From: Gammaproteobacteria bacterium
GTDB taxonomy: Bacteria; Pseudomonadota; Gammaproteobacteria; UBA12402
DNA length: 64,000 bases
Reading direction: 5' to 3'
Assembly (NCBI GenBank): GCA_050123335.1
Contig: JASFHH010000005.1
Location: forward strand, 792-64,791
The position numbers were made by a program, and so were the translations under genes. Within the stretch, counting starts at the first letter, position 1, and each line of letters starts with the position of its first letter. This document shows positions 6,806-16,058 of this stretch, piece after piece. The notes under the pieces are model-generated. The model searched no databases. It had not been told where the DNA came from and saw nothing but the letters and a program-made list of their open reading frames with translations.

Positions 6806-6841
6806 GTCATCCCGCGGCCAAGTTTGTTGACCGCGGGATCC
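6806..6841. repeat. REP-like hairpin, GTCATCCCGCGG-N-CCGCGGGATCC family
   Basis: gtcatcccgcggccaagtttgttgaccgcgggatcc in the intergenic region between tpiA and the phosphatase gene. Confidence 0.6.
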
Positions 6842-6874
6842 AGGCTGTTTGATTATTTTTTTGTGTATGACAGT

Positions 6875-7528
6875 TTATGGTTTTTCATTCCATTTAATTA
6901 AATTCCACTTATCATTATCATAACTGATTTCAGCAAAACAGCCAGTTTTAATTTTATAGTGATCATCTTTGATTGCTTGTTCCATGCCGCCAGTAAACAT
7001 TTCATTTGCAAAAGTAATTGATCCTTGGCTGCCGATGGCAATTACAGTTTCATTAAGATGCTTATGTTTAAGATCATCAAAAAAACTATGAATATTTTCT
7101 ATAATTTTTTCGCGTGTCATTTTCCAATTATGCGGTGCATAATTGGGGATGATGCGTTTATTTTGCCAATCATCCCAGGCTTGTTGACCAAATTTAGCAA
7201 TTACTTCTGAAGAAGTTAATCCCGCCCAATTTCCATAATCAAGTTCCAGTAAGCGTTCATCTTTATATAAAGGAATTTCAATATTTTGGTTTTCCGAAAA
7301 ATATTTTTTTATAATTTCAGCATATTCCCAGATGCGAATTAAATGATTGGCATAAATTGCGGTTGGTTTGATGTTGTTGTCAGCAAGATATTTTGCCATG
7401 TTGCGAGCTTGAGCACGGCCGGATTCAACCAGCGGGATATCATTTTTGCTGCCGCACATGAAAACGCGTTCACCGCCTTGTTGATCTGGTCCAAAAGTAT
7501 TGCCATGCCGGCATAGAAAAAATCGCAT
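6875..7528 (-). CDS. Histidine phosphatase family protein (phosphoglycerate mutase-like)
   Basis: N-terminal RHG catalytic motif (LCRHGNT), the ESG...RA motif and general PGAM-superfamily layout. Confidence 0.7.
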   Translation of the reverse strand: MRFFLCRHGNTFGPDQQGGERVFMCGSKNDIPLVESGRAQARNMAKYLADNNIKPTAIYANHLIRIWEYAEIIKKYFSENQNIEIPLYKDERLLELDYGNWAGLTSSEVIAKFGQQAWDDWQNKRIIPNYAPHNWKMTREKIIENIHSFFDDLKHKHLNETVIAIGSQGSITFANEMFTGGMEQAIKDDHYKIKTGCFAEISYDNDKWNLIKWNEKP

Positions 7529-7723
7529 ATAATATCCTATGTTATGGCCATTATGGACTCTATTCCCGAATAGCCTTGGCTATTCGGGAATGGGTGCCAT
7601 AATAGTCAATATGAAACAATAAGTAGCAAATAATATCAAAAAAGATCTGAATGATAAACTTGTTTGCCTTAATATGCAACTGTTTTATAGTTGCATAGTG
7701 CTTTAAATATGCTATTATAAGAT

Positions 7724-7972
7724 ATGCCAAAGAATAAGAAATTAATAACAAGATTTAAAACAAGACCAAAAGATTTTACCTGGGTTGAGTTAACCAGCAT
7801 GTTGAATCATTTGGGTTTTGTGGAAATACGAGGCAGTGGTTCTAGGGTTAAGTTTTATCATGAAGAAAATGATTGCTTAATTCATTTGCACAAACCACAT
7901 CCAAGTAAAATCTTAAAGGCATATGTAGTAAAGTCAATTTTGTCTACTTTAGAACAAGAAGGTTTGATATGA
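7724..7972 (+). CDS. hicA: Type II toxin HicA family (mRNA interferase)
   Basis: 82 aa with the HicA-like core GF..IRGSGSRVKFYH. Stop overlaps the hicB start (ATGA). Confidence 0.75.
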   Translation: MPKNKKLITRFKTRPKDFTWVELTSMLNHLGFVEIRGSGSRVKFYHEENDCLIHLHKPHPSKILKAYVVKSILSTLEQEGLI

Positions 7973-8511
7973 GTGTAGTATTTAAGTATAAAAATTTTAT
8001 TGGCTCTATAGAAGTTAGTACGCAAGATAAGTGCTTATATGGTAGCGTGCTATATGTAAATGATTTAGTAACCTATGAAGCAAAAACTGTTGATGCACTT
8101 GAAAAAGAATTTAAAAAAGCAGTGGATGATTATTTAAAAACATGTAAAAAACTAGGACGGGAACCTTTAAAATCTTTTAATGGTACATTGAACGTACGTA
8201 TTGGTAGTGCTTTACATAAAGAAGCGGCTGAATATGCTGCTTTGCATGATATGAGTATTAATGAATGTATAAAAAACGCGTTACAAAATCAGATTGGTCA
8301 ACATAAAACAAAAATGACTTCGGCGCAAATGAGGCGTGCAGTAGAAGAACTTCTTAGTTTGAAACATTATCTTGATGAAAGTTTTGATGAATGTTGTGAA
8401 CAAATGGTACGGAGTAAGCAAAAAGTCAATTATGATGAAGCTAAATTAAAAAAAACCTATGACAAAATAACAAAAATGTGTAGGGATTTTGTAGGTGATT
8501 ACAAATGTTGA
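7969..8511 (+). CDS. hicB: HicB-family antitoxin with RHH-like DNA-binding segment and an extra C-terminal ~70-aa extension
   Basis: N-terminal HicB/UPF0150 fold, an RHH-like SGTLNVRIGSALHKEAAEYAALHDMSINECIKNAL segment, and an extension carrying the motif MTSxxxRRAVEELLxLKHY that is shared with the ORF at 38813..39007. Confidence 0.7.
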   Translation: MSVVFKYKNFIGSIEVSTQDKCLYGSVLYVNDLVTYEAKTVDALEKEFKKAVDDYLKTCKKLGREPLKSFNGTLNVRIGSALHKEAAEYAALHDMSINECIKNALQNQIGQHKTKMTSAQMRRAVEELLSLKHYLDESFDECCEQMVRSKQKVNYDEAKLKKTYDKITKMCRDFVGDYKC

Positions 8512-8529
8512 GCTTATCTATAACTCACG

Positions 8530-14183: not shown

Positions 14184-15616
14184 CAGACAATCCTAAAATA
14201 TCCGCTTAATACACATCTTCTAATTCTGGTAAAGTGACGTGCGGTAGTAACACCTTCGCCGGTAGGTGAAGCAATGGTAAAAGATGCTGGACCTTCACCT
14301 TCAATACCGAGTCCTGCAAGTGCCGGACCATTTTTTACAAAAATGGAGGTATTCATTTTTACCGCCATTTTATGCAAGTGTTCAACATTTTTTGAATGCA
14401 TAACCGAAGTATGAAAACATCCATCTTCTAATTGATAAGCAATTTCAATTGCTTCATCAACATCGTTTGCACGAATAAATGGTAATACCGGCATTAATAA
14501 TTCTAATTTTGCAAATGGATGATTAGCATCAGTTTCAACAAAAGCTAAACGTTTAGATGGATCGACTTGCAATCCAATTTGTTGCAAAATTAATTGAATG
14601 TCTTTGCCAACCCATTTTTTATTTGGGTGGCCATCTTGCACAATAATTTTTTCTAATTGTTTAGCTTGGTAATTATTAAGTTCAACTGCGCCATGTTTAA
14701 TTAATGCTTTTTTTAATTCGTCTGCGCAAGCGCGAGTTGCAATAATATTTTTTTCAATTAAACAAATAATATTATTGTCAGTGGATGCACTTATCACAAT
14801 ATCGCGGCCGGCTTTATCAATATCTGCAGTTTCATCAACTACAACTGGAGGATTGCCTGGTCCTGCAGCAATAACTTTTTTGCCGGATTGCATTGCGGCA
14901 TCTACTACAGCAGGGCCGCCGGTAACTACCAGCAAATTAATTTTTGGGTGTTTCATTAAAGTTTGTGCTGATTGAATTGTTGGGTTGATCACGGTTGTGA
15001 TTAAGTTTGGCGGACCACCAGCAGAAATAATTGCTTTATTAATTAAGCTGATAGTTAAGACAGATATTTTTTTAGCGCTTGGATGTGGATTAAAAGCAAC
15101 AGCGTTGCCTCCAGCAATCATAGCAATGGTATTGCTGATAATTGTTTCTGATGGATTAGTGCAGGGCGTGATAGAACCGATTAATCCATAAGGTGCATGT
15201 TCTAAAATGGTTAAGCCGTTGTCGCCGGTAAAAGTTATTGGTTCTAAATCTTCTATGCCCGGAGTGTTGTTAATTGCCAATTCATTCTTTTTTAATTTAT
15301 CTTCGTATCTACCAAGTCCAGTATCGGAAAGTGCTAATCGTGCAATTTGTTCAATGTTTTCGGTACAGATTTCACGAATAGCAGTAATGATTTTTTTACG
15401 TTGCTCTATCGGAATGGTTTTATATTCGAGGAAAGCTTTTTCTGCAGCAAGAATTGCTTCTTCGATATCAGTAAAACACCCCGGGGTGTCATTAGTTTGT
15501 GTGGTGATATTTGGTTTTTGTGGTGCGCTTTTTATTTTAGTTTCCGCAGCAGGAATTACCAATTTATTAACTACACGATCGACAATCGAACTTATTTGTT
15601 GTTCGCTAATAGACAT
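14183..15616 (-). CDS. CoA-acylating aldehyde dehydrogenase (EutE/PduP family) with N-terminal encapsulation peptide
   Basis: ALDH fold with catalytic Cys context (SITPCTNPSE region). The N-terminal amphipathic helix QQISSIVDRVVNKLV followed by a Pro/Thr/Gln linker is typical of PduP/EutE targeting peptides. Confidence 0.85.
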   Translation of the reverse strand: MSISEQQISSIVDRVVNKLVIPAAETKIKSAPQKPNITTQTNDTPGCFTDIEEAILAAEKAFLEYKTIPIEQRKKIITAIREICTENIEQIARLALSDTGLGRYEDKLKKNELAINNTPGIEDLEPITFTGDNGLTILEHAPYGLIGSITPCTNPSETIISNTIAMIAGGNAVAFNPHPSAKKISVLTISLINKAIISAGGPPNLITTVINPTIQSAQTLMKHPKINLLVVTGGPAVVDAAMQSGKKVIAAGPGNPPVVVDETADIDKAGRDIVISASTDNNIICLIEKNIIATRACADELKKALIKHGAVELNNYQAKQLEKIIVQDGHPNKKWVGKDIQLILQQIGLQVDPSKRLAFVETDANHPFAKLELLMPVLPFIRANDVDEAIEIAYQLEDGCFHTSVMHSKNVEHLHKMAVKMNTSIFVKNGPALAGLGIEGEGPASFTIASPTGEGVTTARHFTRIRRCVLSGYFRIV

Positions 15617-15633
15617 AGCAGAGTCCTTCTACT

Positions 15634-15661
15634 GTCATCCCGCGGTTTAACCGCGGGATCC
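15634..15661. repeat. REP-like hairpin (same family)
   Basis: gtcatcccgcggtttaaccgcgggatcc. Confidence 0.6.
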
Positions 15662-15667
15662 AGTGTT

Positions 15668-15955
15668 CTATTTAGAATATTTAGTTTCGCCGTTGATTTC
15701 TAGTTCATCAACAATTGCCATAATGACAGCGTCCACTGGTTTACCGGAGGTCGAGATTGTTTGACGTGCAGAACTTCCTGCTGCGACCAAAACAATTTCA
15801 CCAACTCCAGCGCCGACGGAATCAGCTGCGATTACAAACGAATTCATCGGTTTGCCATCAATATCAACATGTTTAACGATTTGAAGTTTTAATCCTTCGA
15901 GCTTTTCATCTTTTTGGCTGGAAACCACGGTGCCGATAATTTTACCTAATTGCAT
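15668..15955 (-). CDS. BMC vertex protein (BMC-P; EutN/PduN family), third copy
   Basis: MQLGKIIGTVVSSQKDEKL...GEIVLVAAGSSAR...VIMAIVDEL. Confidence 0.8.
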   Translation of the reverse strand: MQLGKIIGTVVSSQKDEKLEGLKLQIVKHVDIDGKPMNSFVIAADSVGAGVGEIVLVAAGSSARQTISTSGKPVDAVIMAIVDELEINGETKYSK

Positions 15956-15976
15956 TACTTAAGCTCCTTAGTTCTT

Positions 15977-16058
15977 GTCATCCCGAACCCAGCTTGTTGA
16001 TTCGGGATCCAGGCGGTTTTTCTGGATCCCGGATAATCGCTGCGCGATTTCCGGGATA
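15977..16058. repeat. Two adjacent REP-like hairpins (AAC/GTT and GGA/TCC stem variants)
   Basis: gtcatcccgaacccagcttgttgattcgggatcc and ggatcccggataatcgctgcgcgatttccgggata. Confidence 0.55.

Follow-up and report, generated by a model that had tools for sequence, protein, structure and literature searches.

In the 64,000-nucleotide stretch of DNA analysed here (the window), short hairpins stand among the genes of a microcompartment (BMC) operon. The question is what kind of element they are: targets of a protein acting on DNA, signals in the mRNA, or mobile repeats of some other type. The hairpin has the form tGTCAT-CCCG(stem-loop)CGGG-ATCCAG and occurs in six copies at 6805-16060; chance would give 0-0.13. 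Five positions match GTCATCCCG-N(10-30)-CGGGATCC exactly, 6806(+), 9331(+), 11681(-), 15634(+) and 15977(+), while 100 dinucleotide shuffles gave none. The sixth copy, at 16022-16060(-), is degenerate (TTTATCCCGG...CCGGGATCCAG). When up to two mismatches per flank were allowed and a folded stem was required, a scan of the 64-kb window returned the same six copies only (0.13 per shuffle). The copies are:

c1, 6805..6843, + strand: tGTCATCCCGCGG-CCAAGTTTGTTGA-CCGCGGGATCCAG, with a 9-bp stem and a 13-nt loop
c2, 9330..9360, + strand: tGTCATCCCGCGG-CTTGA-CCGCGGGATCCAt
c3, 11679..11715, - strand: tGTCATCCCGGA-CCCAGTCAGTTGA-TCCGGGATCCAG, oriented opposite to c1 and c2, within the EutN/BMC-P ORF at its 3' end
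c4, 15633..15663, + strand: tGTCATCCCGCGG-TTTAA-CCGCGGGATCCAG
c5, 15976..16012, + strand: tGTCATCCCGAA-CCCAGCTTGTTGA-TTCGGGATCCAG, first half of a tail-to-tail doublet
c6, 16022..16060, - strand: TTTATCCCGGA-AATCGC-GCA-GCGATT-A-TCCGGGATCCAG, degenerate, other half of the doublet, with 9 nt between it and c5

All six lie within 9.3 kb, inside the operon and nowhere else in the window, and both orientations are represented. The elements are 31-39 bp long and the flanks of the copies are mutually unrelated. Copy c1 separates the His_Phos stop (6875) from the TIM start (6784) and, in mRNA sense, precedes the TIM ATG by 21 nt; c2 lies in the gap from the class II aldolase stop (9365) to the KdsB-like start (9324), and c4 in that from the EutN stop (15668) to the aldehyde dehydrogenase start (15616). 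An earlier note on this DNA had counted at least seven copies, all of them intergenic. Six of these are real: the supposed partial copy at ~41143-41165 has only GTCATCCC in common with the family, its CCCCG/CGGGG stem being unrelated, and was left out of the count, and c3 lies within the EutN ORF (11675-11986, - strand). The 3' flank is also longer than was then given, reading CGGGATCCAG in five of the six copies. A looser match at 21808 belongs to another palindrome family.

Folded with DNA parameters, all six copies form hairpins, at -7.0 to -14.8 kcal/mol (c1 -12.5, c2 -11.9, c3 -7.6, c4 -14.8, c5 -7.0 and c6 -13.9). Stem pairs 1-6 (ATCCCG/CGGGAT) are invariant across the window copies. At pair 7 the copies show C-G (three), G-C (two) or A-T (one), at pair 8 G-C or A-T (three each), and all of these are Watson-Crick. 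The covariation inside the window is real but small. Three copies have loops of 13 nt with a consensus of their own, CCMAGYYTGTTGA. In c6 the GTC head is lost (TTT instead); its architecture is also seen in two Coxiellaceae MAG loci (L012 and L030), where the inner helix is compensated, TGC/GCA replacing CGC/GCG.

The earlier note's reading as a REP-like hairpin family is supported: the family is genuine and its stem changes are compensatory. Pairing is kept in the stem variants, but these are CGG/CCG, GA/TC and AA/TT plus the extra inner helix of c6, and not AAC/GTT or GAC/GTC. The idea that selection acts on structure and not on sequence is correct only by half. In the six outer pairs the sequence is conserved, and likewise in the unpaired bases: GTC precedes the palindrome in five of six copies, C directly follows it in all six, and CCAG does so in five. 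Such conservation of the outer pairs and of the unpaired GTC and C(CAG) fits protein recognition of one DNA strand.

A family with these properties is already known, although it was described only in 2025: the NTS/SRM repeats and the SsnA GIY-YIG ssDNA nucleases of Neisseria meningitidis and many other bacteria (PMC11893778). The six window elements are quite probably hairpins of this NTS/SRM class, that is DNA-level targets of an Ssn nuclease, secondarily inserted, with mRNA stem-loops as a by-product. The Neisseria NTS, CGTCATTCCCGCG..GCGGGAATCYRG, and the window consensus tGTCAT-CCCG..CGGG-ATCCAG are essentially one T/A pair apart, the palindrome arm being ATCCCG in the window and ATTCCC in NTS. 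They share the head GTCAT, the stem core CCCG/CGGG and the tail ATCYRG (ATCCAG in the window), as well as an imperfect palindrome in which inner stem and loop vary. Clustering around particular genes and repeat-gene-repeat layouts are also common to both. The published SRM pattern, HGTCWYN(0-2)YYVSBRHN(0-5)WNVSBRGN(0-2)RNCYNB (PMC11893778), is matched exactly by c2 and c4, and by c1 and c3 once the loop is widened to at most 20 nt (0.02-0.1 in shuffles), but not by c5 and c6; the 13-nt loops of three window copies exceed the 0-5 of the pattern.

For SsnA the C right after the palindrome is reported to be critical for binding, and the three bases before the palindrome for cleavage (PMC11893778). 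The motif is now seen, base for base at these critical positions, in an uncultured, AT-rich and probably Coxiellaceae-like bacterium. Its setting differs from the NTS/SRM systems in the AT-rich, uncultured host, in the position of the copies inside a microcompartment operon and in a window without an ssn gene.

In other genomes the same 19 specified bases are found in at least 119 stretches from many phyla (reference-genome scan). The hosts include Coxiellaceae, Rickettsia symbionts, Methylococcaceae, Hyphomicrobium, Saccharibacteria and Parcubacteria, among others. The motif is also present in 22 stretches of viral or proviral contigs. In 26 sequences built like c2 and c4, inner pairs 1 and 2 are always Watson-Crick, with three pair types each, and all three inner pairs are Watson-Crick in 21; permuting the partners gives 3.9, and none of 2000 permutations came to 21. 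Further, the mean DNA folding energy of the family is -10.4 kcal/mol, compared with -7.2 for re-paired halves. Duplications of the 5' half-site are frequent at hairpins in other genomes.

Three of these loci (L019, L086 and L068) carry an ORF of ~91 aa that consists of a GIY-YIG domain only (Pfam PF01541, E 1e-13 to 1e-15), with the motif on both sides. In L019, hairpins at 1-28, 141-168, 531-558 and 654-681 surround ssn at 218-475. When the ORFs lying up to 1.5 kb from a hairpin were clustered without bias, Ssn alone emerged as a hairpin-specific family. No GIY-YIG or Ssn gene is present within the 64-kb window (66 distinct ORFs against Pfam). A partner enzyme encoded elsewhere, as the earlier note suggested, is plausible, but the recurrent neighbour in other genomes is this Ssn-like nuclease and not a RAYT. 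We infer that the host genome encodes an Ssn that cuts the six copies. One Ssn may not cut all three window stem classes, since in Neisseria SsnA activity was abolished by an altered palindrome sequence even when the structure was kept (PMC11893778).

How such a system would work can be outlined from the published enzymes. Replication, DNA uptake or recombination would expose the GTCAT-carrying strand in single-stranded form, and this strand would fold up as a G+C-rich stem-loop. Ssn, a small GIY-YIG nuclease of one domain, would then bind this stem-loop and cut a few nt upstream, the orientation of the palindrome being set by the head (GTC) and the tail (C; CCAG in the window). The repeats would have been secondarily inserted into the spacers of an SPU-type microcompartment operon of an AT-rich, probably Coxiellaceae-like host, where insertion just upstream of ribosome-binding sites would be tolerated. 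Because transcription of the operon runs through the copies, a stable mRNA stem-loop would form at each of them, most likely as a by-product. Strand-specific cleavage of ssDNA has been demonstrated for four Ssn homologues only (PMC11893778), and functional work has been done in Neisseria only. Limiting transformation is the published role, demonstrated in Neisseria alone (PMC11893778), and it may not hold for a bacterium that probably lives inside cells.

That the copies are insertions is indicated by comparison with related operons. Among 80 syntenic BMC loci there is a single hairpin of the family, in the closest relative (L120, 79% AldDH identity), where it sits in a MITE-like unit of ~130 bp; this near-absence implies that the window copies are lineage-specific insertions. 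The insertions widen intergenic gaps: the gap between BMC-H and EutN is 191 bp in the window and 16-83 bp in relatives. Two further features of the operon are connected to the hairpins:

11675..11728, - strand: C-terminal extension (17 aa) of the EutN-family pentamer protein, derived from the hairpin; ORF 11675-11986
6842..9330, no strand: genes for a KdsB-like cytidylyltransferase, HicA/HicB and a histidine phosphatase, forming a block with the directly oriented c2 and c1 at its ends

The tail of the EutN ORF, ...VDKV-THAHVSSRTQSVDPGSR up to the stop, is encoded in part by c3. EutN homologues align to residues 1-86/87 only, the tail being non-homologous, and the orthologue in L120 ends in VDKVSS. 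In another relative, L122, TIM directly follows the aldolase and the 2.5-kb KdsB-HicAB-phosphatase block is missing. The block is a candidate hairpin-bounded cassette; other relatives, which lack hairpins, also differ in the genes that follow the aldolase. In this metabolic operon one copy thus rewrites the C-terminus of a shell vertex protein, while two bracket an accessory gene block. For annotation this is a warning that NTS/SRM hairpins create spurious ORFs and ORF extensions.

The most serious alternative, although unlikely, is that the hairpins are selected mainly as RNA, standing between cistrons as stem-loops that stop 3'-5' exonucleases or guide processing and so set the ratio of shell to enzyme. 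The REPs of E. coli in malEFG are the model for such action. All six copies are transcribed in one co-oriented gene string, to which they are confined within the 64 kb, and folded as RNA, all but c3 have very stable stems, at -20 to -26 kcal/mol and z values of about -4.5 to -5. By copy, c1 reaches -24.5 (z -4.9), c2 -19.9 (z -4.6) and c4 -26.5 (z -5.0), and the c5/c6 doublet -41.7. The downstream Shine-Dalgarno is left free in five of six cases; c2 would sequester its own, the only Shine-Dalgarno-like GGGA of the KdsB-like gene lying in the 3' arm of c2 in mRNA sense.

However, 79 of the 80 syntenic BMC operons do without the hairpin, both orientations are present, one copy (c3) is coding, and a T-tract is found in no copy. 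Further, the unpaired, asymmetric GTC and CCAG are conserved and equal the flanks next to ssn in unrelated genomes, while an RNA hairpin needs neither. RNA is not bound by SsnA (PMC11893778). Segmentation of the BMC transcript as the primary role, put forward in the earlier note, is made unlikely by the single hairpin in 80 loci, the mixed orientations and the missing T-tract in mRNA sense. As Rho-independent terminators the six copies were rejected, their stems lacking the terminator T-tract in mRNA sense: no copy is called in the mRNA (-) sense, and c2 alone is called, weakly, on the antisense strand.

Less probable still is that the hairpins are att-like or target sites of a site-specific recombinase, an IS110/IS1111-type element or a phage integrase, marking cassette boundaries, with the KdsB-HicAB-phosphatase block having entered between two of them. 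The directly oriented c2 and c1 do bracket the 2.5-kb block missing in L122, dRS3 has been reported as the target of a phage recombinase (Neisseria Nf phages), and the 22 viral or proviral stretches would fit such a role. Against it, no gene for a DEDD/IS110, tyrosine or serine recombinase is present in the 64-kb window, the 119 loci show none as a recurrent neighbour of the motif, and the genes after the aldolase vary in hairpin-less relatives too. Recombination at these sites is compatible with their being Ssn targets, and the two do not exclude each other.

Classical REP/REPIN elements mobilised by a RAYT are a very improbable explanation. Like REPs, BIMEs and REPINs in E. coli and Pseudomonas, the window copies are short, extragenic, G+C-rich imperfect palindromes that are co-transcribed and include one inverted doublet (c5/c6). 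The 5' foot of RAYT-REP hairpins has a conserved tetranucleotide, GTAG or GTGG; every related copy, like those of the window, has the head tGTCAT. Both REP-RAYT and NTS-Ssn pair with a single-copy enzyme recognising a folded single strand, but in the first it is an HUH Y1 transposase and here the recurrent neighbour is a GIY-YIG gene. The earlier note had called for a RAYT search: no Y1_Tnp domain was found among the 66 distinct ORFs of the window (Pfam), nor among the recurrent ORFs near 142 motif copies in other genomes.

In Coxiella burnetii the GTAG REP of QMITE2 is the target of IS1111 (PMC5896051). QMITE2 is a palindromic repeat of a related lineage that is located in 3' UTRs and intergenic regions and sometimes adds a few codons to ORFs, like the window copies; however, it is 150-190 bp long, has TIRs, 7-11-nt direct repeats and a GTAG REP core (PMC5896051), and its sequence is unrelated. 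As MITEs in general the window elements were rejected, being 31-39 bp without direct repeats at their ends, while MITEs have the TIRs of an IS, target-site duplications and lengths of about 100-400 bp. The Rickettsia palindromic elements (RPE) are palindromic repeats of 100-150 bp found in frame in protein-coding genes. The insertion of c3 in EutN resembles them, but the sequence is unrelated and only one of the six window copies is coding.

Chance palindromes or a local duplication artefact, to which the restriction of all copies to 9.3 kb of the window might point, are practically out of the question: none are expected by chance, the flanks of the copies are unrelated, the motif occurs in over 100 other genomes, and an independent JGI assembly has identical gene spacing.

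With Ssn target hairpins as the preferred reading, two extensions of it can be considered, both unlikely: a GIY-YIG ssDNA nuclease may move units whose ends are SRM pairs, or the hairpins may serve this lineage as co-opted mRNA punctuation, tuning microcompartment stoichiometry. If the first were true, movement driven by a GIY-YIG enzyme would be a chemistry of transposition or cassette exchange without earlier description, and the 2.5-kb c2-c1 block, the tail-to-tail doublets and the 5' half-site duplications would be footprints of unit movement. The locus is in any case useful for asking what the repeats do outside naturally transformable bacteria, whether they affect operon mRNA stability and how they spread.

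Finally, the dRS3 of Neisseria (ATTCCC-N8-GGGAAT) is the core palindrome of the same superfamily, and like it the window hairpins are intergenic, multi-copy and tied to variable gene content. Unlike the window copies, dRS3 is defined without oriented flanks. NIMEs, the 50-150-bp segments between dRS3 copies, are not seen in the window. A dRS3-like hairpin without NTS flanks is present at 7562-7590.

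The hairpin family in the window is real. A pattern search for GTCATCCCG-N(10-30)-CGGGATCC gives five matches (6806+, 9331+, 11681-, 15634+ and 15977+), while 100 dinucleotide-preserving shuffles of the window give none. A relaxed scan, allowing at most two mismatches per flank and requiring a folded stem, returns exactly six copies and one palindrome at about 21805 from another family; the shuffles yield 0.13 hits. The copies, referred to below as c1-c6, are:

6805-6843, plus strand: c1
9330-9360, plus strand: c2
11679-11715, minus strand: c3
15633-15663, plus strand: c4
15976-16012, plus strand: c5
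16022-16060, minus strand: c6, which has lost the GTC head

The earlier note had described a REP-like family of at least seven copies. The total is six, and the partial copy it placed near 41150 has nothing beyond GTCATCC in common with the family and is excluded. The flanks it named as conserved are present, but the actual consensus extends further, tGTCAT-CCCG-(inner stem, loop)-CGGG-ATCCAG, and the three long-loop copies have a common loop consensus, CCMAGYYTGTTGA. An ATCCCG..CGGGAT match at 21808 is not a family member. The stems are conspicuous because the G+C of the window is only about 33%.

Folded as DNA, the six copies have energies from -7.0 to -14.8 kcal/mol; as RNA in the mRNA sense they reach -20 to -26 kcal/mol, and z is close to -5 for c1, c2 and c4. 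Stem pairs 1-6 do not vary across copies. Three combinations occur at pair 7 (C-G, G-C and A-T) and two at pair 8 (G-C and A-T). Since every variant of these two pairs is Watson-Crick, the compensatory change noticed earlier is real, based on just three stem classes.

The motif was tested independently in other genomes. With one reference genome taken per bacterial species, a scan for GTCATCCCG-N(10-30)-CGGGATCCAG finds it in at least 119 stretches, with at least 142 matches and at least 122 distinct inner sequences. Among the matches listed are Coxiellaceae, Rickettsia symbionts, Methylococcaceae, Hyphomicrobium, Methylobacterium, Saccharibacteria, Parcubacteria, Binatia, Dehalococcoidia and others, and the motif is also present in 22 viral or proviral contig stretches, there without ssn.

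The inner parts of the matches listed are unconstrained by the search pattern and are nonetheless complementary. They fold as DNA at -10.4 kcal/mol on average; exchanging 5' and 3' halves between copies weakens this to -7.2, and shuffling to -6.6. Among the matches listed, 26 distinct sequences share the c2/c4 architecture, which has a 5-nt loop and three inner pairs. Inner pairs 1 and 2 are Watson-Crick in every one of them, and each of the two occurs as three pair types. The full set of three is Watson-Crick in 21 of the 26, against 3.9 by partner permutation, and none of 2000 permutations reaches 21. We used folding energies and this fixed-architecture count, as a count of contiguous pairs over all loop lengths is too crude because many variants contain bulges. 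Two loci from Coxiellaceae MAGs (L012 and L030) have the c6 architecture with compensatory changes in the inner helix.

The window consensus is similar to the Neisseria dRS3/NTS repeat. The NTS has been defined as CGTCATTCCCGCGMAVGCGGGAATCYRG, and a generalised pattern, the Ssn-related motif (SRM), has also been published (PMC11893778, Nat Commun 2025). SsnA is a 94-aa single-domain GIY-YIG nuclease that binds and cuts the repeats solely as single-stranded DNA, on one strand alone; the repeats usually flank ssnA, and binding reportedly requires the C after the palindrome, cleavage the three bases before it (PMC11893778). In the window, the SRM pattern fits c2 and c4 exactly, and c1 and c3 match once the loop limit is widened. 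The C following the palindrome is found in all six copies, and GTC precedes the palindrome in five. The Coxiella GTAG REP/QMITE2 is a distinct element and was rejected as the identity of the hairpins.

Small GIY-YIG ORFs are detected by tblastn in four of the at least 119 motif loci. Three of these ORFs, in L019, L086 and L068, were scanned with Pfam; GIY-YIG is their only domain, and the gene has the same hairpin motif on both sides. When every ORF lying up to 1.5 kb from a hairpin is clustered without bias, the matches listed yield only housekeeping families besides GIY-YIG, with no RAYT and no IS110. The REP-associated tyrosine transposase suggested as a partner was not found near the hairpins in the loci listed, nor in the window (Pfam, 66 distinct ORFs). 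Neither a GIY-YIG gene nor a Y1 transposase or IS110-type gene lies in the 64-kb window, by Pfam on the same ORFs and by tblastn with Ssn sequences. One DDE_Tnp_1 transposase ORF lies far from the hairpins, somewhere in 48-64 kb.

The genes at 6032-16440 make up one microcompartment locus on the minus strand, with HicAB on the opposite strand. In order they are BMC-H, EutN, aldehyde dehydrogenase, RnfC-like, BMC, EutN, EutN, DeoC aldolase, BMC-T, class II aldolase, KdsB-like, HicAB, histidine phosphatase and TIM, a gene content that we take to be of the sugar-phosphate-utilisation (SPU) type. The GTCAT strand is on plus, antisense to the mRNA, in four copies and inverted in two. Five copies are in intercistronic spacers and end 9-27 nt upstream of the next start codon in the mRNA sense, leaving the Shine-Dalgarno unobstructed except at c2. 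The sixth, c3, sits in a EutN ORF, within its 3' end, so that the claim of a wholly intergenic family holds for five of six.

A known RNA family is not supported, as Rfam has no match at the hairpin positions; its only calls in the window are a tmRNA, a TPP riboswitch and two tRNAs. A terminator role is ruled out, since none of the six copies has a T-tract in the mRNA sense. A conserved regulatory role in BMC operons was judged against 80 syntenic BMC loci (48-79% identity), collected from metagenomes with the aldehyde dehydrogenase as query; it is rejected because a pattern search finds no family hairpin in 79 of them.

The exception, L120, is the closest relative and has one hairpin, in the same EutN/AldDH gap and with a different 3' flank. 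At 600-770 of L120 it forms the middle of a MITE-like unit, about 130 bp long and bounded by 20-nt terminal inverted repeats (TTAAGGGTACCTCTAAAAAT). This hairpin carries a GTCAT-like head on each strand and is missing the C after the palindrome. The BMC-H/EutN gap is 191 bp in the window, where it holds two hairpins, compared with 16-83 bp in relatives. EutN homology stops at residue 86-87; the L120 orthologue terminates two codons on (VDKVSS*) and the window EutN, which has a 17-aa hairpin-encoded tail, runs on as THAHVSSRTQSVDPGSR*, encoded by c3 and an adjacent palindrome:

11711-11730: perfect 20-nt palindrome TGACACATGCGCATGTGTCA, abutting c3 with GTCA in common, within the EutN ORF tail

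In another relative, L122, TIM directly follows the class II aldolase, while in the window a 2.5-kb KdsB-HicAB-phosphatase block separates them, with the directly oriented c2 and c1 at its ends. That this block is a hairpin-bounded cassette is something we only infer, because other relatives carry different genes at that end. The near-absence from syntenic loci, the widened gap and the EutN tail show that the window copies are lineage-specific insertions.

Judged from sequence, the hairpins are best explained as NTS/SRM-class repeats, putative DNA targets of Ssn-type GIY-YIG single-strand nucleases, secondarily inserted in the microcompartment operon. The stem-loops they form in mRNA are probably a side effect. 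The repeat family was already described in 2025, and the window adds a member, no new kind of system.

Several further arrangements of the motif were observed. A duplicated 5' half-site just upstream of the full hairpin, GTCATCCCGxxxx...GTCATCCCG...CGGGATCCAG, is seen in many genomes (L010, L012, L031, L053, L061, L066, L113, L206), and c2 has a counterpart, GTCATTGTCAT, at 9322-9335; it may be a footprint of how repeats get cut or copied. Tail-to-tail doublets like c5/c6 occur in Coxiellaceae (including L012) and Saccharibacteria MAGs, and in a gammaproteobacterial MAG three identical copies recur in tandem as 103-bp units. The tip of long variants is often GCGAAGC, GCGTAGC or GCGCAGC (L014, L034, L070, L105, L107 and others). 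The sequence d(GCGAAGC) is an unusually stable DNA mini-hairpin, and such tips would be consistent with selection acting on the folding of ssDNA and not of RNA. The tandem units and doublets just described, higher-order arrangements of the hairpin, are found at:

L004, 46-285
L012, 7783-7879
L022, 3277-3374 and 6477-6590

The window comes from JGI metagenome 3300042731: exact protein matches are to its contigs, with gene spacing identical to the window, and to one 1.5-kb Logan contig. The gene content, with a CBU_0592-family gene, ankyrin repeats, LptD and SurA, points to a Gram-negative organism resembling Coxiellaceae.

Other repeats and RNA features of the window are:

7545-7608: long inverted repeat with 31-nt arms that are 81% complementary, located between hicA and the start of the histidine phosphatase
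18760-18797: perfect 38-nt palindrome TACAGACCATTTTGTTGAC/GTCAACAAAATGGTCTGTA
20633-20648, 21811-21826 and 22063-22078: second perfect-palindrome family CCNTCGAATTCGANGG, three copies, none expected
21364-21393: palindrome GACCATTTTCCTGAC, related to that at 18760-18797
32061-32417, minus strand: tmRNA, adjoining smpB
41233-41304, minus strand: tRNA
47089-47161, plus strand: tRNA
60304-60382: perfect inverted repeat, 39-nt arms, between convergent genes
62585-62682, minus strand: TPP riboswitch, upstream of thiamine genes

The core of the 7545-7608 repeat (ATTCCCGAATAGCC/GGCTATTCGGGAAT) is dRS3-like (ATTCCC..GGGAAT) but without the GTCAT/ATCCAG flanks. The repeats at 60304-60382, 18760-18797 and 21364-21393 are possibly operators or bidirectional terminators. 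The CCNTCGAATTCGANGG palindromes are each near a tRNA 3'-end-like fragment (about 20545-20580 and 21685-21710), within a 19-30 kb island of HTH/M78, HigB-like, Bro-N, Abi_C and DUF4238 genes that looks like decayed integrative elements.
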